Positions 7,111 through 33,250 of a stretch of DNA of 64,000 nucleotides are shown one piece after another. Numbering within the stretch: position 1 is the first letter of the stretch; every line of letters begins with the position of its first letter. The DNA comes from a virus. Lineage: Duplodnaviria; Caudoviricetes. Location of the stretch: the IMG/VR virus record IMGVR_UViG_3300028283_000231. One strand, written 5' to 3'. Position numbers and translations under genes: made by a program. The notes beneath the pieces are model-generated. The model ran no database searches. It was not told where the DNA came from and was given only the letters and a program-made list of their open reading frames with translations.

Positions 7111-7905
7111 TTATCCTCTACGGTGCATTGATGGAGGTCCCGATTTTTTAAGAAAATCCTCTATTGTTTTATAAAATCCTTTCTTTTTAGGTTTTTCAGG
7201 TGGAGGGTTATGTCTTCTAGCTTGTTCTTCTTCGAAGTTTCTTCTATGTAAGGCTTCAATATTAGCTTCCCTACCTCTTTCGAATTCTCTGACTCTACGT
7301 TCCTGGTCTCTTTGTAACATTGCTATAACATCTGCTGGTGGTATATGACGATGAGCCATTCTTGCTCTACCAGCGTCTCTTACATCTGGTGCTGGAATAG
7401 GTTCTACCATATCATCTTCAACGTCCCAATCCTCTTCACCGTAGGCTGCTTCCACTGGATCTCTTTCTGGTTTTTTAACTTTTTCTGGGGTATCCCATAC
7501 TTCTTCACCATAAGGATCAACGTCTGCATGTACTTTTCTTTCTAAATCTTCGTGATAACGAGCACATATATTTAATATAACATCTAAATATTTAGTTCTA
7601 TTATAAATATCACTTTTAAATTTTCTACTATGTGTAGTATTACCTTGTTTGTCTTTTATTATCAATTCGTAAATCTCTGAAAATTCATCGGGACAAGTTT
7701 TAATTATTTCAAAATCGCAATAGGTGTCCTCACACGTGGCAGATTTATTGATGATAACAAACCCTTCATCTTCTAATAATTTCTTTTCTGCCAGTCCAAA
7801 ACTTTTTCCTTTTTCTGGATCAAAAGGCATAAAGGTATCGCCTATTTCGAAATTAGCAGGAGCTTTTCTTTTTAGTTCTTCAAATAATTTAAAACTCTTT
7901 ATCAT
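7111..7905 (-). CDS. Hypothetical late protein with a capsid-targeting-like leader and two DPYGEExW-type tags
   Basis: MIKSFKLFEE start; DVDPYGEEVWD and AAYGEEDWD; TTTAATATATA just upstream. Confidence 0.7.
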   Translation of the reverse strand: MIKSFKLFEELKRKAPANFEIGDTFMPFDPEKGKSFGLAEKKLLEDEGFVIINKSATCEDTYCDFEIIKTCPDEFSEIYELIIKDKQGNTTHSRKFKSDIYNRTKYLDVILNICARYHEDLERKVHADVDPYGEEVWDTPEKVKKPERDPVEAAYGEEDWDVEDDMVEPIPAPDVRDAGRARMAHRHIPPADVIAMLQRDQERRVREFERGREANIEALHRRNFEEEQARRHNPPPEKPKKKGFYKTIEDFLKKSGPPSMHRRG

Positions 7906-7913
7906 AGTAACTG

Positions 7914-7924
7914 TATATATTAAA
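7914..7924 (-). promoter_or_regulatory. Putative phage late promoter TTTAATATATA (representative copy)
   Basis: Exact copies upstream of genes at 7914(-), 17048(-), 24218(-), 32441(+), 42917(-), 50975(-), 51034(+), 54953(+), 58707(-), plus TTTTATATATA variants; analogous to the T4 late TATAAATA. Confidence 0.7.
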
Positions 7925-7986
7925 ATAAACTTTTAATATTTTTATCTATAAATAGTACAACACATTAAAAAATAATTGACTATGAA

Positions 7987-8238
7987 ATGAAAATTATAGA
8001 AATAAAGAACGGTGATGAATTATCAAAGTTTATAGAAGAGTATAAACAATTTCACTCTGAAAGAGGAATAGCTGAAAGTTCAAATATTTTAGTTGGAAAC
8101 TATAATCAAGATAAAGGTAAATTTCTTGTTGTTGATAAAAATGATGACTTGGTTTATGAAGTCAATAAAATATATATTTGTCGACATCAAAATACACACA
8201 TGTTAGATTATAAAATTGAATATTGTGAAATTGGATAA
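7987..8238 (+). CDS. Hypothetical protein
   Basis: 83-aa ORF with phage-like codon usage, behind an AAACTTT...TATAAA element. Confidence 0.6.
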   Translation: MKIIEIKNGDELSKFIEEYKQFHSERGIAESSNILVGNYNQDKGKFLVVDKNDDLVYEVNKIYICRHQNTHMLDYKIEYCEIG

Positions 8239-8300
8239 TTTACCATAAAATTTCTTGAAATGATTTCAAGTGTAAATATTCAAAAAGAATATTCCTATAA

Positions 8301-9374
8301 ATGGAATTTAAAAAGCAATTAGAATGTATGAAAAAAAGGGCGTTAATAACAGGTATAACAGGAATGGATGGTTCTCACTTATCAGAGCTTCTTTTAGAAA
8401 AAGGTTACGAAGTACACGGTATAATTAGACGTTCCAGTTCATTTAATACTGGAAGAATTGATCATATTTACCCCCAATTAAAACTTCATTACGGTGACGT
8501 TACTGATACTCTTTCAATAGAACACGTCATTCAAGACATTAAACCAGATGAATTATATAATCTGGCAGCCCAATCCCACGTAGCAGTTTCTTTTGAACTC
8601 CCTGAATATACAGGTCAAGTAGACGCATTAGGTGTACTTAGAATATTAGAAACAGTTAGACGTTACTCTCCACATACAAAGATATATCAAGCATCTACAT
8701 CAGAATTGTTTGGTAAAGTAGAAGAAGTACCACAAAAAGAAACAACACCATTCCATCCCAGATCTCCTTACGGTGTAGCTAAACTTTACGCTTACTGGAT
8801 TTGTAAAAATTACAGAGAAGCTTATAACTTATTCATCTCTAACGGTATATTATTTAATCACGAAGGCGAGCGTAGAGGTGAAACATTCGTAACAAGAAAA
8901 ATTACAAAAGGTTTGGTTGAGTGGACAAAAACAAAAACCCCTATACATTTAGGTAATTTAAATGCTAAAAGAGATTGGGGTTACGCTAAAGATTTTGTAT
9001 ATGGTATGTATCTCATGTTACAACAAGATAAACCAGATGATTTCGTTTTAGCTACAGGTGAAGCACATTCGAATAAAGAATTTATTGAAGAAGCTTGTAA
9101 ATACGTTAATATTGATATAGTATGGCGTGGAGAAGGAGTTAATGAAATTGGGGTAGATAAAAATTCTGGTGACGCTATTGTGATACAAGTTGATCCAAAA
9201 TATTTCAGACCAGCAGAAGTTGATCTTTTACTTGGTGATCCAACAAAGGCCAAGGAAGTTCTTGGTTGGGAAGCTAAAACTAAATTTAAAGATTTGGTTA
9301 AACTCATGATGGAAAGTGATTTAGATAAATATGGTGAAAAAAATCTATGGCAAAAATTTTTTAAGAAGGGATAA
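8301..9374 (+). CDS. gmd: GDP-mannose 4,6-dehydratase (probable start at 8328)
   Basis: ALITGITGMDGSHL, YNLAAQSHV, YQASTSELFG, PRSPYGVAKLY, NHEGERRGETFVTRKI, RDWGYAKD, FRPAEVD. Confidence 0.97.
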   Translation: MEFKKQLECMKKRALITGITGMDGSHLSELLLEKGYEVHGIIRRSSSFNTGRIDHIYPQLKLHYGDVTDTLSIEHVIQDIKPDELYNLAAQSHVAVSFELPEYTGQVDALGVLRILETVRRYSPHTKIYQASTSELFGKVEEVPQKETTPFHPRSPYGVAKLYAYWICKNYREAYNLFISNGILFNHEGERRGETFVTRKITKGLVEWTKTKTPIHLGNLNAKRDWGYAKDFVYGMYLMLQQDKPDDFVLATGEAHSNKEFIEEACKYVNIDIVWRGEGVNEIGVDKNSGDAIVIQVDPKYFRPAEVDLLLGDPTKAKEVLGWEAKTKFKDLVKLMMESDLDKYGEKNLWQKFFKKG

Positions 9375-10242
9375 GTTAATGAAAATACCAACCGAAAATG
9401 ATTTTTATGTTAGAATAGAAAAAGAGCCTAATAAGGTTATTATTAATTCTGTTAATTTAAATGACGCTGGTGGTAGTGAGCATTTAAATAAAATATTAAA
9501 AATAGATTTTATTTTAAATGGCAACATTTCTTATTCACTTTCATGTAATTTTTCTGATCCGAATATTAATCATTGGATAGTACCATATGGTTATTCAAAT
9601 GATAATGACGATTTAATATTAAATTTTTACGACGAATCTAGACATTTATTTGATATAAAAATTGATAAATTATATGGTAATCACATTTATAATAAAATAG
9701 ATGGTTGGTTTGATTTCCAAAGTGTTTATAAAGAAGCTGTTCAAAACGGAAAAGACGGAGATCATTTTGTTGAAATAGGTTCTTGGTTAGGGCGTTCTGG
9801 TTCTTTTATGGCGACTGAAATAAAAAATTCAGGCAAAAAAATAAAATTTGATTGTATAGACACTTGGCAAGGATCAGGTGAAGTATATCACGAAGAATAT
9901 TTGAAAGATAATAGTTTATACGATAATTTTTTAAAAAACATATCACCTTTAAAAGAGTACATAAATCCAATAGTAGAATATTCTTATATAGCTCCAAAAT
10001 ATTACGAAGATTTGTCTTTAGATTTTGTTTTTATAGACGCTGATCATAGTTACGAGATAGCTAAAAAAGATATAACAGAATGGTACCCAAAAGTAAAAAT
10101 AGGCGGAACAATCGCTGGTCACGATTATTATAATTCATGGCACGTTCAAAAAGCTGTGAATGAAATATTTGGAGAAAATATAACACAAAATAGATTATCA
10201 TGGATTCATAAAAAAGAGAGCGATCTCTTTCCACTAAATTGA
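9331..10242 (+). CDS. Unknown N-terminal domain + class I SAM methyltransferase (Methyltransf_24-like); probable start at 9379
   Basis: FVEIGSWLGRS, CIDTW, LDFVFIDADHSY, GGTIAGHDY. Confidence 0.85.
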   Translation: MVKKIYGKNFLRRDKLMKIPTENDFYVRIEKEPNKVIINSVNLNDAGGSEHLNKILKIDFILNGNISYSLSCNFSDPNINHWIVPYGYSNDNDDLILNFYDESRHLFDIKIDKLYGNHIYNKIDGWFDFQSVYKEAVQNGKDGDHFVEIGSWLGRSGSFMATEIKNSGKKIKFDCIDTWQGSGEVYHEEYLKDNSLYDNFLKNISPLKEYINPIVEYSYIAPKYYEDLSLDFVFIDADHSYEIAKKDITEWYPKVKIGGTIAGHDYYNSWHVQKAVNEIFGENITQNRLSWIHKKESDLFPLN

Positions 10243-10306
10243 TAATCAGTGTATTATAAATAACAAGATTAAAAATTTATATATAGGTAAAAAATATAAT
10301 ACGAAA

Positions 10307-10738
10307 ATGAAAAAGGTTTACGAGAATTTAACGAAGGAGAATATCAACAAGAATTTGTTTGATGTTGATTTTGAATTTGATGATTTGAATAGTATTGAAA
10401 AACAATTATTAAAGGATTATATAAATAAGATAACTGATAATATGATGGAGTTTGAACTTATGTCTGTTGATAAGACTGTTCAACCACTTGATATATTGAT
10501 CAGATTGAAGAATAATAAATTGACTGGTGATGTTTTGGTTAAAATGAAAGATAAGGATGATCATATTCTTGGTGTTTTTAAATTTAAGACATTAAAAGTG
10601 ACTGAAATTAATAATTTAATTGATTTTGATTTTGGTGAAGCTGATTTTAGAGGAAGTCAGAAGACTCTGACGATAAATTTTATCTACGATGATATTCTTT
10701 ATTCTAATGACGGAAAAGAATATGAGAAACTCACATAA
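10307..10738 (+). CDS. Hypothetical late protein, weakly tail-tube (gp19)-like
   Basis: C-terminal LIDFDFGEAD...LTINFIYD pattern; TATATA promoter at about 10276. Confidence 0.35.
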   Translation: MKKVYENLTKENINKNLFDVDFEFDDLNSIEKQLLKDYINKITDNMMEFELMSVDKTVQPLDILIRLKNNKLTGDVLVKMKDKDDHILGVFKFKTLKVTEINNLIDFDFGEADFRGSQKTLTINFIYDDILYSNDGKEYEKLT

Positions 10739-10797
10739 TTCGAATTTTTAAACTTAAAATTTATATTCACGTATAAATAAAAAAAGAATATTATTTT

Positions 10798-11325
10798 ATG
10801 CAAATACTCATTACACCCGAAGACATTATAAGACGTTGTTTATGGTTGGATTATAAAAGATTTTGTCTAAAGGAAAAAGGCGAAGAAGAATTAAGGAAAG
10901 TTATAGAAGAAAATAAACCAGTCGCTTTAAAGGAAGACGACGCCTATGTGATAGGTTTATTAAAGATTGTAGAAACTCCAAATCTAGTTCACAGACTAAA
11001 AGAGCACATGGATGAAGTATTAAAAATAAGAAGTAATATTTTCAATAATAAGTTGTTCATTATAAAATCAGTAGCTTTAAAAGAAATAGGACAATTCGTA
11101 CAAAGATTCCCAGAAGGTTTTAAAGCTCCTTTTGAATATAAAAAGGGGATAGAGGATTTGAAAGTTTTCTCTGAAAAAATATACGGTGAAGTGGATAGAT
11201 TACCAACTCAAACTTTCCAAAACGGTGATAAAACTTACACATATGTTTCATCTAATAGTGTTAAAAATATAGTGGATGAAAAAGATAAAGAGAAAGAAAA
11301 AGACAAGGTTGAAAAAATACTATAA
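10798..11325 (+). CDS. Hypothetical protein
   Basis: 175-aa ORF after an AAACTTA-N15-TATAAA element. Confidence 0.6.
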   Translation: MQILITPEDIIRRCLWLDYKRFCLKEKGEEELRKVIEENKPVALKEDDAYVIGLLKIVETPNLVHRLKEHMDEVLKIRSNIFNNKLFIIKSVALKEIGQFVQRFPEGFKAPFEYKKGIEDLKVFSEKIYGEVDRLPTQTFQNGDKTYTYVSSNSVKNIVDEKDKEKEKDKVEKIL

Positions 11326-25038: not shown

Positions 25039-25926
25039 ATGAAATGTTTAATTTGTGGAAAAGAACATAACAATAAGAAGTACTGTTCAGAACAATGTCA
25101 ATATGAAGCTTATAGAGTTAAGAAAGTGGAAAGAGTTAATATAAAGTGTTTAAATTGTGGCGAAGAATTTGAAATATTGAAAACTAAACAAAAAAAATAT
25201 TGTAGTAGAAAATGTGTAGATGAACATAAAAAGATAACATATTTAGGTGAAAATAACCCTATGTTCAATTATGATGTATCAGATGACACTAGAAAAAAAC
25301 ATTCTGAAGCGTCAAAAATGATGTGGAGAAATCAAGATGTGTCAGATAGAATAAAAAAAAGAATGAAAGAACATAATGAAAATAGTGAATATCCAAATGG
25401 ATGGTCTAATGAATCAAGGGAAAGAAGAATTAAAACTACTATCGAAAAATTTGGAGTAGTTCACAACTTCATGAACGAAGGAGTTAGAGATCAAGCGAAT
25501 AAAACATGTATGGAAAGATATGGGAAAATGTCATACGAACTGATGTTGGATGGATTACATAAAACTAATATAACATCAATAGAAAAAATATTTGAAAATT
25601 TCTTAATAATTAATGATATAAAATATGAAAAACAATTTAGAATATATTTTAAAAATGAAAAAAGTGAATTGAAATTCAGATCATATGATTTTTATTTAAT
25701 AGACAAAAAAACAATTGTTGAAATAGATGGTGATTATTGGCACGGTAATCCAATGTTTTTTAAGAAATTAAACGAAACTCAACTGAAAAATAAAGCCAAT
25801 GATATATTTAAAGATGAATTAGTTATAATTAAAAATTTAAATATCATAAGGTTTTGGGAAGTTGATATACATAATAACAACTACGAGCAAAAGATATTAA
25901 GTTTATATGGCAAAAATAAAGATTAA
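25039..25926 (+). CDS. Free-standing homing endonuclease (two Zn-binding repeats, NUMOD3-like segment, Vsr/DUF559-like nuclease)
   Basis: CLICG...YCSEQC, CLNCG...YCSRKC; YDFYLIDKKTIVEIDGDYWHGNP; IIRFWE. Confidence 0.85.
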   Translation: MKCLICGKEHNNKKYCSEQCQYEAYRVKKVERVNIKCLNCGEEFEILKTKQKKYCSRKCVDEHKKITYLGENNPMFNYDVSDDTRKKHSEASKMMWRNQDVSDRIKKRMKEHNENSEYPNGWSNESRERRIKTTIEKFGVVHNFMNEGVRDQANKTCMERYGKMSYELMLDGLHKTNITSIEKIFENFLIINDIKYEKQFRIYFKNEKSELKFRSYDFYLIDKKTIVEIDGDYWHGNPMFFKKLNETQLKNKANDIFKDELVIIKNLNIIRFWEVDIHNNNYEQKILSLYGKNKD

Positions 25927-28900
25927 GAAAAAAATCCCCAGCGCTGGATTCGCATCGTCGCTTATTCAACAGAACTTTGGTGAAGATCCATTCGGACATG
26001 GTTATCTTCTATGGAATATAGAAGAAGGAACGGTTCAAGATATTAACATTGATAACGAACATAGATTCATTAAATTTGAGATCAGTCCGAATACAGATTA
26101 CGATAAATTACATTTAATTTCTAAATACGTTGGTAAATACAACAAATTTAGAGTTGAATGGAACGAACACGCGGCTTTCATTACAAACGAAAATGAAACG
26201 AAAATAAAAAAATATCTTAAAGAAAAATACGGCGCAGAAGATATTGAAATTAAACCAAATAGAATTTATACAGATATTAAAGACGGTAAAATGCTGTCTG
26301 AAATTATTGATATAAATGATAAAGACGTACAACAAGGTATTATAAAACAATTCCTTAAAGAAAATAAATTTAAAGATGATTTTGTCAATCAGGTAATAGA
26401 AATAGATAACGTTATAAATGATAGATTACAATTAAGTGATACTAGAAATATTATTTGGAACATTGATAAGTTTTGGTTTAGTAATTTCAAATCCTACGGT
26501 GACGATAATATAATTGAATGGGATAACATAAATGGTGTTATTCAAATTGGCGGTGAGAACCAACAAGGTAAAACTACCATCATTGATGCGATATGTTTTA
26601 TACTTTACGGTACAACTATATCTACACAGAAAACAGAAAAGAACGGTAATAATAGATATATCAACAAAAATAGAAATAAGAATGCTTGTGACGGTGGTGC
26701 CGTCATAGATGTTAACGGTGAAAAGTACATAATGTACAGAAAAGTAGAAAGAGAATTTAAGAAGGGAAGAGAGATTAAATCTGTACCTATGACTCTTGAT
26801 TACTATAAGGGAACTGAAATGTCTGACGAAAATAAATTAACAGGTGAAAGAAAAGCGTCTACACAAAAATTACTGGACGAGGTACTTGGTAATTTTGATG
26901 ATTTTGTAAGATTGGCATTAACAAATGCTGATAACTTAAACTCTCTTCTTTCAATGGATAGAAGTGTTTTCATTGATTCTATCATAAAGGACGCTGGTTA
27001 CGATATATTTGAAAAGAAATTATCTGAATTTAAAGAATATAAAAAGGAATTAAATCTTGAGAAAATAAATGTTAACCAGATTGAATTACAAAACGAAATC
27101 AAAAAAATATCAGATGATTTAAAAGATAAAGAAGATTTTTTATCTGATACTAATATTGATATAGAAGATATAGATAAACAAATAGTAGATAATGTTAATG
27201 AAAAGGAAGACTGTTTAAGAAGATTACACAAGATGGACGAAACAGTAATGAATATTAATGTGAACGACGTTAAAACACAAATAAGAGTATCTAAAACAGA
27301 AAAGGAAGAGATAAGAAAAGAAATTGACGAATTGGAAAAGGACATAACTCTTTTACCAGAAGAATTCGATTATGATAACTTTGAAAAATTAACAGGCCAA
27401 CACGAAAAATATGTTACAGAGAAGAATAAAAGAGATATCGAACTATTACAGTTGAAGAATGTTTTTAAACAGAACGAAGAGAAAATTCTCAACGTTGATA
27501 AGGATATTAACATTGAAAAAACAAAGTATGTTGATTATTTAAGGAATAATATTGCTGGTTTGAGAATTGAATTAAGGGAAACTATTAACGAGATAAATAA
27601 TAATTCCAACGTTAAAAGAAATGAGTTAGAAAATCAAAAGAATAAATATAGAAATGAATTAAATCTTCTTAAGCAAAATGGTATTGACGAAAAACAAAAA
27701 ATCGTTGATTATACAAACATGCTTAATGGTGATAATCAAATCTGTGTTACCTGTAATCAACCTATTGTTACAAAGGACGAAGAACATATGAACGGACTTA
27801 TAACAGATAGTAAAAAGAAAATAGAAGATATTACTAAAACTGGTAAACAGAAACTTGATTTCTTAAATGAATGCAATACAAAATTAGAAGCCTTATCTAC
27901 TCTTTCAGATAAATTAATTGATGAAAAAACTATCGAATTTACAGATAAAATAAAGGAGATTCAAAACAAAGTAGATAACTTCAACATCGCCTATATACAA
28001 GATCGAATTGAAGAAGTGATGAAAAATAAAGAGAAAGCAGAACTCGAAAACGTTTCTTACGATACAAAAATAGAAGAGAGAAAGAAATACGTTTCTAAAC
28101 TAGACACAGAAATTAAAAGACTATCTCTCACTATAACCAGTCTTAAAGTAGACAAGGCTCTCTTCGAAAAATGTAGAACTTTAACTCATAAGAGAGATCT
28201 ATTAACTTCACAATATAAAGACGCTCAAAGATCTTTCGATGATAACACTAAATTATTAAATGAATATCTTAAAAACGAAGCTCTTATAACTGAGAACGAA
28301 CGCATCAACACCTCACTAAAATCTATTAAAGAACAGATTGATACGCTCACTTCTAAGAGGAGCGAACTTTTAGATGATAAACTATCTTATTCTAATGAGA
28401 TCACTCTGTCTAAGAAGGTTATAGTAGATTTAAAGGATAAATTAGAGCGTTATATTGAGCAGGAAAAGAGAGAAGAACTTCATAACGTTTATTTAAAATT
28501 AATGCACAGAACAGGTCTTCCTACTTATCTTTTAACAAAGAATATTGATATATTGAACGAAGAGTTGAACTCCTTGTTAACAAACATTAATTTCACTTTA
28601 TTCTTTGACGAGGATCTGAATTTGAAGTTACAACACGATGGGTTAGATGATATTATAAATGTTATTGAAACATCTGGTATGGAAAGAACATTTAGTGCTA
28701 TTATTTTGAAGATGGTTTTAAGAATTATAAACTTTAAGAGTAAACCTAACTTTATGTTTTTAGACGAGGTTATCAATAGACTTGTGAATAAGTCAGTAGA
28801 TAAGTTTATGGAATTGCTTGAGGTATTGAAAAATAAAATTGATAAATTAATAGTCATCGAACACGATAATGAAATAGCTAGTGATATGATTATCAATGTA

Positions 28901-28942
28901 GTTAAGAGTGAAAATGGTATAAGTAGTTTTGAAATAATATAG
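25907..28942 (+). CDS. sbcC: Rad50/SbcC (gp46-like) ATPase carrying the C-terminal part of the Mre11/SbcD nuclease at its N-terminus
   Basis: N-terminal FASSLIQQNFGE...HGYLLWN; Walker A GENQQGKTT; coiled coil with CVTC zinc hook; TSGMER, MFLDEV, VIEHD. Confidence 0.92.
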   Translation: MAKIKIKKKIPSAGFASSLIQQNFGEDPFGHGYLLWNIEEGTVQDINIDNEHRFIKFEISPNTDYDKLHLISKYVGKYNKFRVEWNEHAAFITNENETKIKKYLKEKYGAEDIEIKPNRIYTDIKDGKMLSEIIDINDKDVQQGIIKQFLKENKFKDDFVNQVIEIDNVINDRLQLSDTRNIIWNIDKFWFSNFKSYGDDNIIEWDNINGVIQIGGENQQGKTTIIDAICFILYGTTISTQKTEKNGNNRYINKNRNKNACDGGAVIDVNGEKYIMYRKVEREFKKGREIKSVPMTLDYYKGTEMSDENKLTGERKASTQKLLDEVLGNFDDFVRLALTNADNLNSLLSMDRSVFIDSIIKDAGYDIFEKKLSEFKEYKKELNLEKINVNQIELQNEIKKISDDLKDKEDFLSDTNIDIEDIDKQIVDNVNEKEDCLRRLHKMDETVMNINVNDVKTQIRVSKTEKEEIRKEIDELEKDITLLPEEFDYDNFEKLTGQHEKYVTEKNKRDIELLQLKNVFKQNEEKILNVDKDINIEKTKYVDYLRNNIAGLRIELRETINEINNNSNVKRNELENQKNKYRNELNLLKQNGIDEKQKIVDYTNMLNGDNQICVTCNQPIVTKDEEHMNGLITDSKKKIEDITKTGKQKLDFLNECNTKLEALSTLSDKLIDEKTIEFTDKIKEIQNKVDNFNIAYIQDRIEEVMKNKEKAELENVSYDTKIEERKKYVSKLDTEIKRLSLTITSLKVDKALFEKCRTLTHKRDLLTSQYKDAQRSFDDNTKLLNEYLKNEALITENERINTSLKSIKEQIDTLTSKRSELLDDKLSYSNEITLSKKVIVDLKDKLERYIEQEKREELHNVYLKLMHRTGLPTYLLTKNIDILNEELNSLLTNINFTLFFDEDLNLKLQHDGLDDIINVIETSGMERTFSAIILKMVLRIINFKSKPNFMFLDEVINRLVNKSVDKFMELLEVLKNKIDKLIVIEHDNEIASDMIINVVKSENGISSFEII

Positions 28943-28948
28943 AATATT

Positions 28949-29149
28949 ATGTTAAACATAGATAAATTAACTAGGGATGAACTACAAAAAGAATTTTTTG
29001 AATTTGAAGGGGATCACCCAGGAAATTGGGAGAAATGGATCAAATGTTTATTAAGTAAGGAGTATTTCAAGGATAGTAGTTTTTATAATTATCTTCTTAA
29101 TAAGGAAAGAACAGAATTAATTGATAAAACATTAAATGATAATAACTGA
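28949..29149 (+). CDS. Small protein with C-terminal R-x-x-LID tag (array member 1)
   Basis: ...KERTELIDKTLND. Confidence 0.7.
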   Translation: MLNIDKLTRDELQKEFFEFEGDHPGNWEKWIKCLLSKEYFKDSSFYNYLLNKERTELIDKTLNDNN

Positions 29150-29447
29150 TACATACGAAGATAAAGCTGGATATAGCGTGACAATTGGAGATATACAACA
29201 ATGTTGTCCTAAATGTGGGAAACACGAAATGTTTCATCTCATTTGTAAAGGTAAGGATGATAGAGGATTTAGAAATGGTATGTCCTTTATAAAATGTCAA
29301 GAATGTAACTGGAGAGGACTTAGTAAGTATTTAGTAGATCCTTATGAATTTAAAGTTAAAAAGAGAACAGAATTAATCGATAGGATGATTTATGAAGGGA
29401 AAATGGAAAAAAATATGGAACGACGACTTACCAGGATTTCACGATAG
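29136..29447 (+). CDS. Zn-ribbon protein with R-x-x-LID tag (member 2)
   Basis: CPKC...CQEC; KKRTELIDRMIYE. Confidence 0.75.
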   Translation: MIITDTYEDKAGYSVTIGDIQQCCPKCGKHEMFHLICKGKDDRGFRNGMSFIKCQECNWRGLSKYLVDPYEFKVKKRTELIDRMIYEGKMEKNMERRLTRISR

Positions 29448-29661
29448 ATTTCACTGTCCAGAATGTTTTGGTTTTGAATTATTTATAGGAAAAGATCACG
29501 TTCAATATTATCATTATCAACAACCAACAGTAGTAAATAATACTCCATCTAGAATGAAATGTAAATGTGGATGGACAGGATTATCGACAGAGTTATTAGA
29601 CAAAGATGAAATGAAGAACACTAAAAGGGTAAAATTAATTGATGAAATGTGCAAAGAATAG
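29392..29661 (+). CDS. Zn-ribbon protein with tag (member 3)
   Basis: CPEC...CKCG; TKRVKLIDEMC. Confidence 0.75.
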   Translation: MKGKWKKIWNDDLPGFHDRFHCPECFGFELFIGKDHVQYYHYQQPTVVNNTPSRMKCKCGWTGLSTELLDKDEMKNTKRVKLIDEMCKE

Positions 29662-29891
29662 AAACTATATACAAAGGGGAAGAATTAATAATTGAAGTAT
29701 CTGATGGTGCAAGATCTATTGGTAGCGGTTCAAATTTTGGAATAAACGGAGTTCAAATAAATTTTCATAAAGGCATCTTTGACGAAGATACAAATTCTTT
29801 TGTTGAAGATATTTTATGCGAAAGAATCAATATCAATAGAAACAAATTAATTGACGATATACTATATGGGAAGAAAGAAACTAAAATTTAA
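29649..29891 (+). CDS. Small protein with tag (member 4)
   Basis: INRNKLIDDILY. Confidence 0.65.
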   Translation: MQRIETIYKGEELIIEVSDGARSIGSGSNFGINGVQINFHKGIFDEDTNSFVEDILCERININRNKLIDDILYGKKETKI

Positions 29892-30192
29892 AACTAAACA
29901 TAGATGTCCCAAAAGCACTTGGGGTGGTTATATAGAAGGAAGATTGTTCGATTACGATTATACTAAATGGCCTGGTTGGATGCCTGATTATTATAAACTA
30001 TATCTCGATATGGAAGAAATAGAAGAACTAGGCAAAAAAGAAGATATAGACGAATTCTCATTGGAAATGGCTAAATTAATCAGAAACAAAGAAGAGATAG
30101 ATTTCCCAGTAGCCGTAAACTTTACAGAAGACGAATTCAAAAACTTTAGAAGAATGGTCCTAATGGATAATATGCTCAATTGTCAGAAATGA
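29851..30192 (+). CDS. Small protein with tag (member 5); probable start at MGRKK
   Basis: FRRMVLMDNMLN. Confidence 0.65.
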   Translation: MTIYYMGRKKLKFKTKHRCPKSTWGGYIEGRLFDYDYTKWPGWMPDYYKLYLDMEEIEELGKKEDIDEFSLEMAKLIRNKEEIDFPVAVNFTEDEFKNFRRMVLMDNMLNCQK

Positions 30193-30238
30193 TAAAAATG
30201 ACAATATTTATATTAATATATACAAATAAAAAAGAGTT

Positions 30239-30370
30239 ATGAATTTAATAATAGATAAAAACAGAGTATTTTACCATAGTTCTATTAGTAGAGCTAGATG
30301 TGGTAAATGGGTACATGTAAGTAATAGTGATCCAAAACTAAAGAATCAAAAGGAATCAGGAATCTTATAG
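30239..30370 (+). CDS. Small basic protein (43 aa, not in track) behind a TATATA promoter
   Basis: MNLIIDKNRVFYHSSISRARCGKWVHVSNSDPKLKNQKESGIL. Confidence 0.45.
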   Translation: MNLIIDKNRVFYHSSISRARCGKWVHVSNSDPKLKNQKESGIL

Positions 30371-30380
30371 TAGTGGTATT

Positions 30381-30614
30381 CTACCAGATTACGCTGAAAT
30401 GGAAAGAGAAGACATTATGCCAAGTTTGTTGACTGGTGTTATCGTACCAATCTGTTACTGTTATATTTATATGTCTATTAACTATTTCCATAATTACCTT
30501 ATCAAGAGTATCTTTATCTTGTGTCGGGTATTTATATATCGACCCTTTCTCTTTTTTCCCAAAAGTATATCTGGGACTTTTTTCAAGTTTAGTAGAATAT
30601 TTATCTGGTTTCAT
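30381..30614 (-). CDS. Hypothetical protein ending the minus-strand array
   Basis: 77 aa; its start overlaps the tag-encoding end of the upstream gene. Confidence 0.6.
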   Translation of the reverse strand: MKPDKYSTKLEKSPRYTFGKKEKGSIYKYPTQDKDTLDKVIMEIVNRHINITVTDWYDNTSQQTWHNVFSFHFSVIW

Positions 30615-30873
30615 TTAAAGATCTATCAATTATTTTTATTCTCTTATAGTTCTTTGCTTCGTATTCATCTAACGTCTTATTCCAATCACCCATCCATCCA
30701 CAAGATTTACATTTTGGAAGAATGGCTCTATTATCTTTTGTGACTTCATATCCTAATATATCGTAACAAACTGGACAATAATCATAATGAATTAGTCTAG
30801 CCTGTTGTTCAGCTCTGTCTAATTGATATTTAAGGGTTTCTATAAATTCTTGTTCCTTTTCTATGCTATTCAT
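30601..30873 (-). CDS. Zn-ribbon protein with tag (member 6)
   Basis: CPVC...CKSC; YKRIKIIDRSLNE. Confidence 0.75.
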   Translation of the reverse strand: MNSIEKEQEFIETLKYQLDRAEQQARLIHYDYCPVCYDILGYEVTKDNRAILPKCKSCGWMGDWNKTLDEYEAKNYKRIKIIDRSLNETR

Positions 30874-31102
30874 TTAACATTTCGTCAATTAATTTTGTTC
30901 TTTTTAAATTTTTCCATTCTTCTTGGACATAAAATTTATCATGAAAATCTTCTAATTTCAATAATGTATTAAATGGGGCTTTTATCGGCGCTTCAACATG
31001 CACTAATCCTTTTAGTATTACGAAACTATACCATTTATTTTTTTCATAACAATTGGAGTTCTTATTAAAACTTTCTTTAGCTTTTTCTATTTTATTTTTC
31101 AT
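30866..31102 (-). CDS. Small protein with tag (member 7)
   Basis: LKRTKLIDEMLNE. Confidence 0.7.
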   Translation of the reverse strand: MKNKIEKAKESFNKNSNCYEKNKWYSFVILKGLVHVEAPIKAPFNTLLKLEDFHDKFYVQEEWKNLKRTKLIDEMLNE

Positions 31103-31373
31103 TTAACATTTCGTCCATTAGTTTTGTTCTTTGCCAATTTTTATATTCTTCTTTTGTAAATTCCACGATATAAGTATCATCGCCCATCATTTCTTTTCCA
31201 CCAAGTTTATATTTATCGTTATCTTCTTTACTCACACAACCAACATATTCTTTAAATTCAGACATACTATGATATATTATCCACCCGCCCTCTTTTCTGG
31301 TATGTATCCATTTTCTTCCATCAATATCAATAATATCATACTTGCCCTTCCACTTATTATCTATCACATTCAT
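31092..31373 (-). CDS. Small protein with tag (member 8)
   Basis: WQRTKLMDEMLNE. Confidence 0.7.
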   Translation of the reverse strand: MNVIDNKWKGKYDIIDIDGRKWIHTRKEGGWIIYHSMSEFKEYVGCVSKEDNDKYKLGGKEMMGDDTYIVEFTKEEYKNWQRTKLMDEMLNEK

Positions 31374-31692
31374 TTAACATTTTATCTATTAATTCTATTC
31401 TTTCGTTACACTTAATTTCATTCTTATCAAAATAAAAACGCTTTTTATCATAACCAAAAGCACATTCTACTCCATAAATAGTAATTTCATCGCTCCCATT
31501 GGCTTTATTTATAAGGTAAATGCCATCATAGTATTCACCCTCTTTAAAATTAGAACCTGGTCCTACATATTTCCCACTTACTGTATATCTATCAGGTGTT
31601 GAAAAATCCTTTATACAAAGTACTTTTATTTTTTCATAATAACAAGTCGGATATACTTCAGCGTCGGGATAATCGTCAATTACTCTCTTCAT
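31357..31692 (-). CDS. Small protein with tag (member 9)
   Basis: NERIELIDKMLNE. Confidence 0.7.
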   Translation of the reverse strand: MKRVIDDYPDAEVYPTCYYEKIKVLCIKDFSTPDRYTVSGKYVGPGSNFKEGEYYDGIYLINKANGSDEITIYGVECAFGYDKKRFYFDKNEIKCNERIELIDKMLNECDR

Positions 31693-32344
31693 TATACCAC
31701 ATTACTTCTTTTCTATTATGCTTCTGCCCTTTTAAATCTACCAGATCCTCAAATGGAAGCCAATCAGCCCCAGCATTTTCACAAACTATAACTTGTCCAC
31801 TTCTATCTATACACCAAGCACCAAGTGAAGTATAATCAATCTTATTGTTGGTGTAATACTTACCACCATTACCAGAGTAAGGCGGATCTACAAACCAAGT
31901 GGCTTTCATATTTAACGCGTTTTCATAACTCTCGTTCTTTATGGTCCAATGTTTTACCTTATATAACTCTTCTGATAAAAGTTTGCGATGTTTTTCATCC
32001 CAGTCACAAAAATTACCTGGGGATTTCTTAGGAACAGAAGAACCAGGATTCAAATATAAACCAATTGTCCACTTCTCGGGATCACTCAGATAATTAAACT
32101 CTTCATTATTAAGGCATTGTCCCTTTACTAAAAGAGGTAGTCCAAGTATATCTTTAGGTGACGCATCTTGTAAGTATGTCCAAACAGAGTATATTTTATT
32201 ATTTATTTCGTATAGAATAACGTCTTTTTCGAAATATTCCATAGCGTAGGCTGCTGAGCCAGCGAAAGGTTCTATAATTGTATCGTATTGAGGAACAGGG
32301 TAATATTTAACTATTCTCTTTTTTCTTCCGTAGTAGTAAAACAT
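31676..32344 (-). CDS. D12-class DNA adenine methyltransferase (short type)
   Basis: YYGRK, IEPFAGSA (motif I), FVDPPY (motif IV). Confidence 0.85.
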   Translation of the reverse strand: MFYYYGRKKRIVKYYPVPQYDTIIEPFAGSAAYAMEYFEKDVILYEINNKIYSVWTYLQDASPKDILGLPLLVKGQCLNNEEFNYLSDPEKWTIGLYLNPGSSVPKKSPGNFCDWDEKHRKLLSEELYKVKHWTIKNESYENALNMKATWFVDPPYSGNGGKYYTNNKIDYTSLGAWCIDRSGQVIVCENAGADWLPFEDLVDLKGQKHNRKEVMWYNEESN

Positions 32345-32476
32345 AAGTTTTTTTATTTTGATATATCAAAAATTTATGATATAGTTTTCATTAAAGCGTA
32401 AGTGTTAAAAAATTTTACACTCGTTTTTTCAAATTTTGAATTTAATATATAAGACAAACAAAAACTACATTTTACT

Positions 32477-33250
32477 ATGGACGAGATAATTAAAGAGTTT
32501 GTTCAATGGATGTTAAAGAATTATCCTATTATGCTTATAATCATTGGTGTTGTGATAGTGTCTCTGTACATCTTAAAGGAAATAAAGGAGATATTTTTCA
32601 ATAGAGATCACGATGGTAAAAGCTTTGGTAGTTATTTATATCATACTGTATTTTTTTGGCTACCTAAGAGTAAGAGGGTAATAGAACTAAAACACGTTCA
32701 ATACACATCAGAAGAAAGAGAAAAAATAGTAGATAAATTACTTGTTCATAATTTCTTTATTTCTATTACTAATATTAAGACGCAAATACCAGCAATGCAA
32801 TTCGGTAGCGAAAAGAAAAATGCTGTATTAAGAGATGTTATAAAAATATACGTTGAAGTAATTGAAAAGTACGCAATATCAATATTAAAGAATTATAAAT
32901 TGGATGAATTACTTTGTGCTAAATTAAATGAGATTCTTTTACAGGAGATAGATAAAGCTCATATTGAAATATATAGCAAAATGAAAGATAGGTTGGGTGA
33001 GGCTTTGTATATAAAATTAATTGAAGATCCAGTAAGAGGTTTTAAAGCACGTAATTCTATATTCAGAGAAATTTTTATAAACGGTATTACATTAATATCA
33101 ACACAGTCTATGTCTGTATATAATTATGATAACTATGAAAGAGCAAGTGAAATATTAACATCTATGTATGTTTCATTGAATGTTATCGTGAAGAATTTTG
33201 AAAAGGTATTCAAAGATTATAACGGTGAATTAGATAAATATTTATTATAA
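32477..33250 (+). CDS. Membrane-anchored late protein
   Basis: N-terminal TM (IMLIIIGVVIVSLYIL); TTTAATATATA at 32441. Confidence 0.65.
   Translation: MDEIIKEFVQWMLKNYPIMLIIIGVVIVSLYILKEIKEIFFNRDHDGKSFGSYLYHTVFFWLPKSKRVIELKHVQYTSEEREKIVDKLLVHNFFISITNIKTQIPAMQFGSEKKNAVLRDVIKIYVEVIEKYAISILKNYKLDELLCAKLNEILLQEIDKAHIEIYSKMKDRLGEALYIKLIEDPVRGFKARNSIFREIFINGITLISTQSMSVYNYDNYERASEILTSMYVSLNVIVKNFEKVFKDYNGELDKYLL

Follow-up and report, generated by a model that had tools for sequence, protein, structure and literature searches.

A shared C-terminal tag and a standardised gene junction in the small-gene arrays of a huge phage

The virus record IMGVR_UViG_3300028283_000231 (Duplodnaviria; Caudoviricetes) holds a stretch of 64,000 nucleotides (nt), hereafter the window, in which nine small open reading frames (ORFs) of 66-113 amino acids (aa) end in one common peptide of about 20 residues, termed here the tag. 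Five of these ORFs lie on the plus strand at 28949-30192 and four on the minus strand at 30601-31692. The tag is confirmed as a real feature far beyond chance, and we found no published description of it. It is selected as a protein helix, its last nine codons are in addition constrained as RNA ahead of the next gene, and its repeats evidently serve as crossover sites through which whole genes are gained and lost among relatives. While this anatomy and evolutionary mechanism are well supported, the molecular function is one that we infer from them, namely that the tag may be a portable docking or assembly helix within a standardised gene junction, and to this reading we give an even chance.

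Aligned over its roughly 20 residues, the tag of the nine ORFs reads x-x-[DE]-E-hydrophobic-K-N-x-[KR]-R-x-[KE]-L-[IM]-D-x-M-L-N-E with the R and D invariant, or in a short form [DE]-E-aromatic-K-N-x-[KR]-R-x-[KE]-L-[IM]-D-x-M-L. In the wider family it consists of a [ST]-x-E-E cap followed by aromatic-K-N-x-K-R-T-[KE]-L-I-D-K-[MI]-L. The plus-strand tags carry ERTELIDKTL, KRTELIDRMI, KRVKLIDEMC, NRNKLIDDIL and RRMVLMDNML, and those on the minus strand KRIKIIDRSL, KRTKLIDEML, QRTKLMDEML and ERIELIDKML. When a loose regular expression was run over all six frames of the 64 kb, it matched just two places besides the nine, each inside a large protein, and against the nine C-terminal matches of the window, 200 sequences simulated from it with a second-order Markov model had 0.06 on average and never more than 2. 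A preliminary description, made from the sequence alone, had reported nine small ORFs with a shared C-terminal motif, and all of them were recovered where it had placed them; its motif stood, and its length was corrected to about 20 residues beginning with the [ST]-x-E-E helix cap. The tag ends 2-18 residues before the stop in the window and 0-18 residues before it in a set of 155 sequences (most commonly 1), and all of the more than 100 copies are in-frame C-terminal extensions, with no untranslated copy among them. The region holds in total ten small ORFs, nine of them tagged, which are placed as follows together with the genes that head the two operons.

25907-28942, plus strand: Rad50-type ATPase ORF of 1011 aa, heading the plus-strand operon; 7 nt separate its stop from the start of gene 1.
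28949-29149, plus strand: gene 1, 66 aa, helical body; tag at 29081-29140 (..ERTELIDKTL); its orthologue L002 9344-9544 is 85% identical.
29136-29447, plus strand: gene 2, 103 aa, zinc ribbon and tag (29337-29396).
29392-29661, plus strand: gene 3, 89 aa, zinc ribbon and tag (29599-29658); not in the related phage LR756501.
29649-29891, plus strand: gene 4, 80 aa, tag at 29811-29870; GTG start within the tag of gene 3, at the same position in the database relatives P0012 and P0014.
29866-30192, plus strand: gene 5, 108 aa from the ATG at 29866, divergent tag RRMVLMDNML at 30124-30183; ends the plus-strand array.
30239-30370, plus strand: 43-aa remnant, cut by an inversion, of an untagged 85-aa gene (L002 10370-10627).
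30405-30407, no strand: inversion joint relative to LR756501, L002 10564 joined to L001 6213, with 3 nt of microhomology and outside any tag.
30381-30614, minus strand: gene 10, 77 aa, untagged; N-terminal part of a tagged 146-aa gene of LR756501 (L001 5985-6425).
30601-30873, minus strand: gene 6, 90 aa, with an N-terminal helix, a zinc ribbon and the tag (30610-30669).
30866-31102, minus strand: gene 7, 78 aa, body without BLAST match and the most canonical tag of the nine (30869-30928).
31092-31373, minus strand: gene 8, 93 aa, beta-rich body; tag at 31098-31157, the crossover point for an extra gene (L001 6906-7106).
31357-31692, minus strand: gene 9, 111 aa, tag at 31369-31428; 17-nt start overlap with the methyltransferase gene.
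31676-32344, minus strand: Dam-type adenine methyltransferase heading the minus-strand operon, matching TIGR00571 at E 4e-7, which is below the cut-off; MethyltransfD12 is found on its homologues.

The tag is also where the next gene begins. At seven junctions the next ATG lies 2 nt past the last Leu codon of the tag (29136, 29392, 29866, 31373, 31102, 30873, 30614), with the letters TTA-AAT-G.. or xTA-TAT-G.., and at one junction a GTG start (29649) falls inside the M-C codons; gene 5, at the end of its array, has neither an overlapping gene nor an ATG at its tag. This bears out the preliminary count of eight next-gene starts at nine tags. The fixed quantity is thus the distance from tag to start, and it is the distance from tag to stop that varies. 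In the lineage of the window the upstream frame continues 2-18 residues into the next gene, hence the variable tails after the tag, of which the 18-aa tail of gene 2, read through across the start of gene 3, is an example. Junctions in other lineages usually read ..M-L-[K/E]-TGA, with stop and next start overlapping as ATGA.

Codon usage was counted over 103 distinct tag DNAs from several lineages (also in a 42-copy version), a comparison of synonymous with amino-acid conservation that the preliminary description had proposed, and it separates two layers. For E, K, N, R and D, synonymous codons occur at background rates: over the seven codons that precede the invariant R, GAA/GAG stands at 75:11 against a background of 0.82 and AAA/AAG at 48:22 against 0.79; the invariant D is written GAT/GAC at 78:15 (background 0.77) and the invariant R as AGA, CGA and AGG. 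Amino-acid replacements are conservative and cost several base changes, with F/W/Y/I/M exchanged in one column and only L/I/M at two core columns. Since the 5′ half together with R and D sits at background synonymous rates, selection there acts on the protein, and the helix is selected as such. Codons +1 to +8, which make up the 25 nt directly ahead of the next start, favour A-ending synonyms: ACA in 78/88 cases against a background of 0.44 (p 2e-18), TTA in 83/95 against 0.50, ATA in 74/92 against 0.53, and AAA in 52/53 and 53/54. The last nine codons of the tag are therefore constrained as RNA too.

The RNA layer agrees with how genes of this phage appear to be started. The leaders of 49 window ORFs of at least 150 aa are 50-70% A at positions -19 to -8, have T at -1 in 67%, and carry a Shine-Dalgarno-like motif in 7 cases; such A-rich leaders without Shine-Dalgarno sequences agree with the predicted Bacteroidetes host. 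Initiation in Bacteroidetes proceeds without Shine-Dalgarno pairing and relies on unstructured leaders and upstream adenines, and AUGs near the start are avoided (PMC6847099). Folding of eight junction windows gave a mean of -1.5 kcal/mol per 60 nt, where the coding sequence of Rad50 gave -5.3. Rfam models had no match in 28500-32500 at E ≤ 1. Through its M codon the tag adds an AUG 5-7 nt before the true start, and Ile replaces M in 33/103 tags; we read the retention of M as a protein need that overrides leader optimisation. The translational coupling that had been proposed for the junction thus gains support from the fixed start distance, the A-ending bias, the unstructured RNA and the A-rich leaders, all of it indirect.

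The content of the arrays differs in every relative compared. Behind the Rad50 gene, LR756501 has one extra zinc-ribbon gene and lacks gene 3, and behind the Dam gene it has two extra genes; a third relative carries a homologue of gene 8 immediately behind Dam, and in a more distant contig a Mre11-Rad50 fusion is followed by five zinc-ribbon carriers. Crossovers were placed by three-way alignments at two gene-sized indels between the window and LR756501 that have tags on both flanks. At the gene 3 indel, a hybrid tag in L002 agrees with gene 2 as far as the core ..AATTAAT.GAT, beyond which it agrees with gene 3; at the extra-gene indel, the gene 8 tag of the window matches the gene 8 tag of L001 on its upstream side, and then the tag of the extra gene and its downstream flank. 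On these alignments the ~30-nt repeats evidently act as unequal-crossover sites that remove or add whole genes, which upholds the earlier proposal of a recombination handle. Two further indels, beside untagged genes, show short AT-rich microhomology and not tags. The earlier description had also named what would undo its proposal, namely conservation at the DNA level as a by-product of stop/start overlap and array content fixed among relatives; this scenario fails on both the protein-level selection and the turnover that the scan of relatives revealed.

The tail-to-tail arrangement of the two arrays has a different origin. In LR756501 both arrays lie on one strand, 55 kb apart, and the window is colinear with one of them as far as 30407, colinearity with the other beginning at 30405. 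An inversion of ~55 kb joins the arrays tail to tail and truncates two genes, an untagged one of 85 aa and a tagged one of 146 aa. The layout is not an assembly error, for contigs of three runs other than the likely source, one of DNA and two of RNA libraries, bridge the joint without differences. The convergent layout is thus due to an inversion that is real in this population, and it does not belong to the design of the arrays; the joint lies outside the tags. Logan contigs from the likely source run end precisely at one tag copy (30608-30638) that recurs in other parts of the genome. Because the tags are repeated within a genome, short-read assemblies fragment at the arrays.

The closest named relative is the uncultured 735,411-bp phage LR756501/LR756503, with which the Rad50-type ORF of the window shares 93% protein identity. 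Its lineage belongs to the Mahaphage clade, with a predicted Bacteroidetes host (PMC7162821). A 20-position profile of the nine tags, run over six frames of LR756501, located ~32 tag sites, all in open frames of 51-200 aa and distributed in three clusters (215.8-223.5, 274.3-278.2 and 672.7-674.5 kb) and three singletons. The stretch of the window itself occurs in lake-water metagenome and metatranscriptome runs. A profile search with zinc-ribbon carriers and tag pieces against 1.84 billion representatives returned 218 matches at E ≤ 1e-3, 44 of them at E ≤ 1e-10, and about 150 of the sequences listed among the 218 carry the motif. Most matches are a zinc ribbon followed by the tag, and almost all are metagenomic proteins without a name. 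Of those listed, none has an informative name, and nearly all are 55-120 aa long with two CxxC knuckles and the ending ..[DE]-L-L-[TS]-x-E-E-[YWF]-K-N-x-K-R-T-[KE]-L-I-D-K-[MI]-L. Among GenBank phages the family was found only in LR756501/3. The canonical tag DNA pattern was not found in 185,579 prokaryote species (one genome each); it occurred once in IMG/VR and in ten JGI metagenome contigs of 25-30% guanine-cytosine (GC) content, usually in several copies per contig. A stricter first DNA pattern had given two matches in IMG/VR, both of which were judged to be chance. No paper containing the motif letters was found by a full-text literature search, and no Pfam, PHROG or NCBIfam model was found for the tag. 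As far as found, the family appears confined to Mahaphage-type huge phages.

Lineages within this family have their own tag variants regardless of the body in front: I-D-E-M-T in 5/5 copies of one contig, I-E-R-M-L in 11/14 of another, and [FL]-K-I-L-D-E-I-L in five or six of a third. The R of the I-E-R-M-L variant is written AGA and AGG about equally, so synonymous sites are free there. Copies of one contig sharing one variant amount to concerted change, as would arise from repeated crossovers within the tag, from co-evolution with a partner, or from the two combined. In the relative L016 (23.6% GC), positions 7503-11274 hold 14 successive tagged genes, nearly all with ATGA overlaps, and this run is flanked by a topoisomerase II fusion and an SbcC-like ATPase. 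In L015, the gene straight after a five-gene tagged array (10664-11122) bears D-P-Y-G-E-E-N-W, and peptide tagging may be widespread in this clade.

The bodies in front of the tag are diverse. With their tags stripped, 53 carriers from the window and its relatives fall into at least 12 groups unlinked by BLAST, including a dominant zinc ribbon, a MORN variant (H-R-x-D-G-P-A), a beta-rich group that includes gene 8, a group with ..F-Y-S-P-E-E-T, and several rare groups found in one or two places only. The bodies had been described as unrelated, which holds for most of them and not for the zinc-ribbon paralogues, genes 2, 3 and 6, nor for genes 5 and 8, which align across 96 aa at E 2e-8 and are probably distant paralogues. 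The front half of the tag varies with the body class, E-E-Y-K-N-I-K-R after zinc ribbons and P-E-E-T-x-N-I-L-R after the F-Y-S group, and the core R-T-x-L-I-D-x-hydrophobic-L is universal across the classes. None of the nine window proteins scored above threshold in Pfam, PHROGs or NCBIfam.

An AlphaFold2 model of gene 6, built on the zinc-ribbon alignment, has a mean predicted local distance difference test score (pLDDT) of 90.4 and consists of an N-terminal helix, a zinc ribbon and one C-terminal helix; the tag is modelled as a helix over residues 70-89 at a pLDDT of about 90. The model of gene 8 is weak (pLDDT 58), yet it has a C-terminal helix at 74-91. The [ST]-x-E-E that precedes the aromatic position resembles the capping box of a helix. 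Foldseek searches with the gene 6 model against PDB, AlphaFold DB clusters and BFVD returned only generic Rpb9/TFIIS-type zinc ribbons and weak Lar-like rows; a sequence profile search of PDB matched zinc fingers and zinc ribbons to the body and left the tag unmatched, and a search of the ESM Atlas gave clusters without names. The zinc-ribbon carriers P0101, P0140, P0152 and L011 4304-4558 have short collagen-like G-X-Y or Gly-rich runs at their N-termini, and these may hint at trimeric assembly.

Every array examined overlaps or nearly abuts a gene of DNA metabolism, which may be Mre11-Rad50, Dam methyltransferase, a topoisomerase II fusion or, at the far end, an SbcC-like ATPase. In three relatives (L005 5612-9205, L009 4361-7954 and L015 4548-8153) a Metallophos+AAA_23 fusion of 1197-1201 aa occupies the equivalent place and is followed by a tagged array. 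The 1011-aa Rad50-type ORF of the window starts later than the Mre11-Rad50 fusion of the relatives, and the gene appears split. No terminator-like sites were present in 28500-32600, and a sigma-70 promoter scan is uninformative in DNA of 30% GC. Most of the arrays are covered by contigs from two metatranscriptome libraries, which is compatible with transcription. Because of the T4 homologues of the neighbouring DNA-metabolism genes, the arrays would be expected to be expressed early or midway in infection.

In these genes small domains are each fused to one portable C-terminal alpha-helix of ~20 residues, and we propose that its last nine codons act as a Shine-Dalgarno-less leader of the next gene. 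On bodies of 40-90 residues, an exposed L-I-x-x-M-L patch and the invariant R and D would form a docking surface for one common partner, and the front half, specific to the body class, would pack the helix on its own body; docking would then bring varied small domains to one phage or host partner, early or midway in infection. The junction would be a standard connector, in which a crossover anywhere spares both the upstream helix and the downstream leader, and so gene shuffling would rarely break either neighbour. That the helix docks is suggested by the exposed and strongly conserved hydrophobic and charged surface of such small bodies. A stronger form of the proposal, in which one 60-nt 'plug' combines a hub-docking helix, a Shine-Dalgarno-less leader and cassette-exchange homology in huge Bacteroidetes phages, we put forward tentatively and consider rather doubtful; were it true, the helix shifts (DK to ER, LI to IL) would record co-evolution with the hub. 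For a degradation signal, or for an effector role of the bodies, both of which had been raised earlier, we see nothing in support.

Several observations weigh against a docking helix. Around the helix, the conserved positions take up some two thirds of the circumference, as would suit a bundle of helices no less than the groove of a partner. Synonymous sites in the 3′ half are conserved as much as the amino acids, and protein and RNA selection are not cleanly separable there; between close orthologues the tag is 83% and the body 77% conserved, a difference that is not significant (p 0.11). One ORF of LR756501 departs from the C-terminal rule (L014 1298-1900, at ~565.3-565.9 kb; 200 aa), with an internal tag 84 residues before its stop; loss of a stop may have fused a tagged gene to the gene downstream of it. 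The contigs from the RNA libraries, finally, may contain DNA.

The helix geometry could also be taken to mean that there is no separate partner, and that the carriers oligomerise with themselves or with one another through a C-terminal bundle, displaying the small domains on a common stalk. By our own geometry the conserved residues cover ~240 degrees of the helical wheel, with R and D at i and i+5 where they could form inter-helix salt bridges, and copies of one contig share one variant as co-assembling subunits would. Collagen-like G-X-Y runs usually need an adjoining trimerisation element, and such runs are present in P0101, P0140 and L011 4304-4558. The helix, however, is just ~2.5 heptads long, its would-be core positions include T, N and E, and the Gly-rich N-termini are few and short; we regard self-assembly as unlikely. 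Another view would make the tag mainly a nucleic-acid device, a leader and recombination handle spread with the cassettes, with the peptide merely tolerated. The strong synonymous constraint in the last nine codons, the start codon at a fixed distance, the A-rich unstructured junction RNA and the crossovers within the tag all suit this view, and the favoured residues K, T, K, L, I, D and K have A-rich codons. Yet the more than 100 copies are all in frame and C-terminal with none untranslated, and the 5′ half is conserved as amino acids while its codon usage stays at background, with conservative multi-base replacements (F/W/Y; LI to IL; DK to ER, with R as AGA or AGG). The additional AUG 5-7 nt before the true start is of a kind disfavoured in Bacteroidetes leaders (PMC6847099), and untagged genes of the same operons share the overlaps, ordinary leaders being A-rich without sequence conservation. 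We hold a mainly nucleic-acid device to be quite improbable.

Still less probable, and indeed hardly credible to us, is a peptide that acts in the ribosome tunnel and holds the ribosome at termination for re-initiation on the overlapping start in a non-Shine-Dalgarno host. The tag always lies within ~20 residues of the stop, an overlapping start follows nearly every tagged gene, and the length and the spacing of invariant residues resemble those of known arrest peptides; but it is the distance to the next ATG that is fixed and not that to the stop, which varies from 0 to 18 residues, the same ATGA overlaps serve to couple untagged genes, gene 5 is tagged without an overlapping downstream gene, and the front half of the tag co-varies with the body class. 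The nucleic-acid-only and arrest-peptide explanations fit the data worst. The zinc ribbons offer one further possibility. Members with this body could be remote kin of the Lar restriction-alleviation proteins, in which case the whole family would be an arsenal against restriction and the tag its conserved end, later fused to other bodies. In favour of it, 16/94 members match PF14354 Lar_restr_allev weakly (one at 29.3 bits against a cut-off of 28.6), models named 'restriction alleviation protein' stand among the weak structural matches, and arrays adjoin Dam methyltransferases in two lineages. Those matches, however, span the generic zinc ribbon alone (profile 6-43 of 58) and are rivalled by many zinc-ribbon families, the three zinc-ribbon genes of the window are unmatched at E ≤ 1, the tag has no counterpart in the profile, and the structural matches lie at E 0.1-0.4. 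An anti-restriction origin of the family seems to us improbable, and the Lar resemblance may serve as a lead and not as a sign of membership.

Huge phages carry hundreds of functionally uncharacterised small genes, and one address label common to over 30 of them in each genome offers experiments a single point of entry, since a reader of the tag would reveal the destination of the whole class. The junction is a compact natural case of triple coding for a peptide, a translation leader and a recombination site, and it suggests how arrays may be expressed and reshuffled in hosts without Shine-Dalgarno pairing. On the practical side, the tag is a sensitive metagenome marker of this phage clade and breaks short-read assemblies at the arrays.

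Several known systems resemble the tagged arrays in part. The attC sites of integrons are imperfect inverted repeats that fold into hairpins at the 3′ end of each cassette, and the junctions studied here are essentially unstructured and translated (no integrase search was made). Arrest peptides keep a fixed spacing to the stalled codon, unlike the tag with its 0-18 residues to the stop. Lar proteins (PF14354) are zinc-ribbon proteins of 60-90 aa with a C-terminal helix, from phages and prophages, and they share with zinc-ribbon tag carriers a weak likeness of sequence and fold; this is confined to the generic zinc ribbon, and most carriers stay below the threshold, with no match passing the gathering threshold across the whole domain. 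Hub-binding C-terminal peptides are known from the clamp-binding tails of the polymerase, gp33 and gp55 in T4 and RB69, and from the C-terminal tips of SSB. As in those proteins, a short conserved peptide stands at or near the C-terminus of several different proteins, and the known tails share one partner. They sit on large replication and transcription proteins, however, whereas the tag is a long N-capped helix with ~30 or more carriers per genome; in LR756501 it occurs in frames of 51-200 aa only, and the idea of a clamp-binding tail was dropped as no ORF of that phage above about 240 aa bears the tag.

In logic, two systems of T4-type phages come closest. Internal-protein (IP) loci of T4 are reportedly polymorphic, varying in content between close relatives. 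The capsid targeting sequence (CTS) of T4 is a short peptide shared by otherwise unrelated small proteins (IPI-III, Alt), and it directs its cargo to one destination (PMC3012670). The CTS is N-terminal, has ~10 residues, is cleaved by the prohead protease and marks late, virion-packaged proteins; the tag, by contrast, is a 20-residue helix at 0-18 residues from the C-terminal end, stands in operons headed by DNA-metabolism genes, and has no cleavage motif evident beside it. The PeSL (promoter-early stem-loop) elements of T4-type phages, intergenic promoter-terminator hairpins made of a sigma-70-type promoter and a stem-loop, are short conserved repeats on either side of small novel genes, in the hyperplastic regions that separate core genes; insertions, deletions and replacements between close relatives are explained by recombination of these repeats, and the repeat bears the expression signals of the next gene (PMC2839356, PMC4122927). 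The tag does likewise in that recombination between its copies yields the indels of relatives, as the two crossovers within tags indicate, but its repeat codes for a selected peptide, its RNA is unstructured without terminator-like hairpins, and the signal that it offers the next gene would be a translation leader and not a promoter. The tagged arrays are thus perhaps best compared with the targeting logic of the CTS and the shuffling logic of the PeSL elements, while belonging to neither system.

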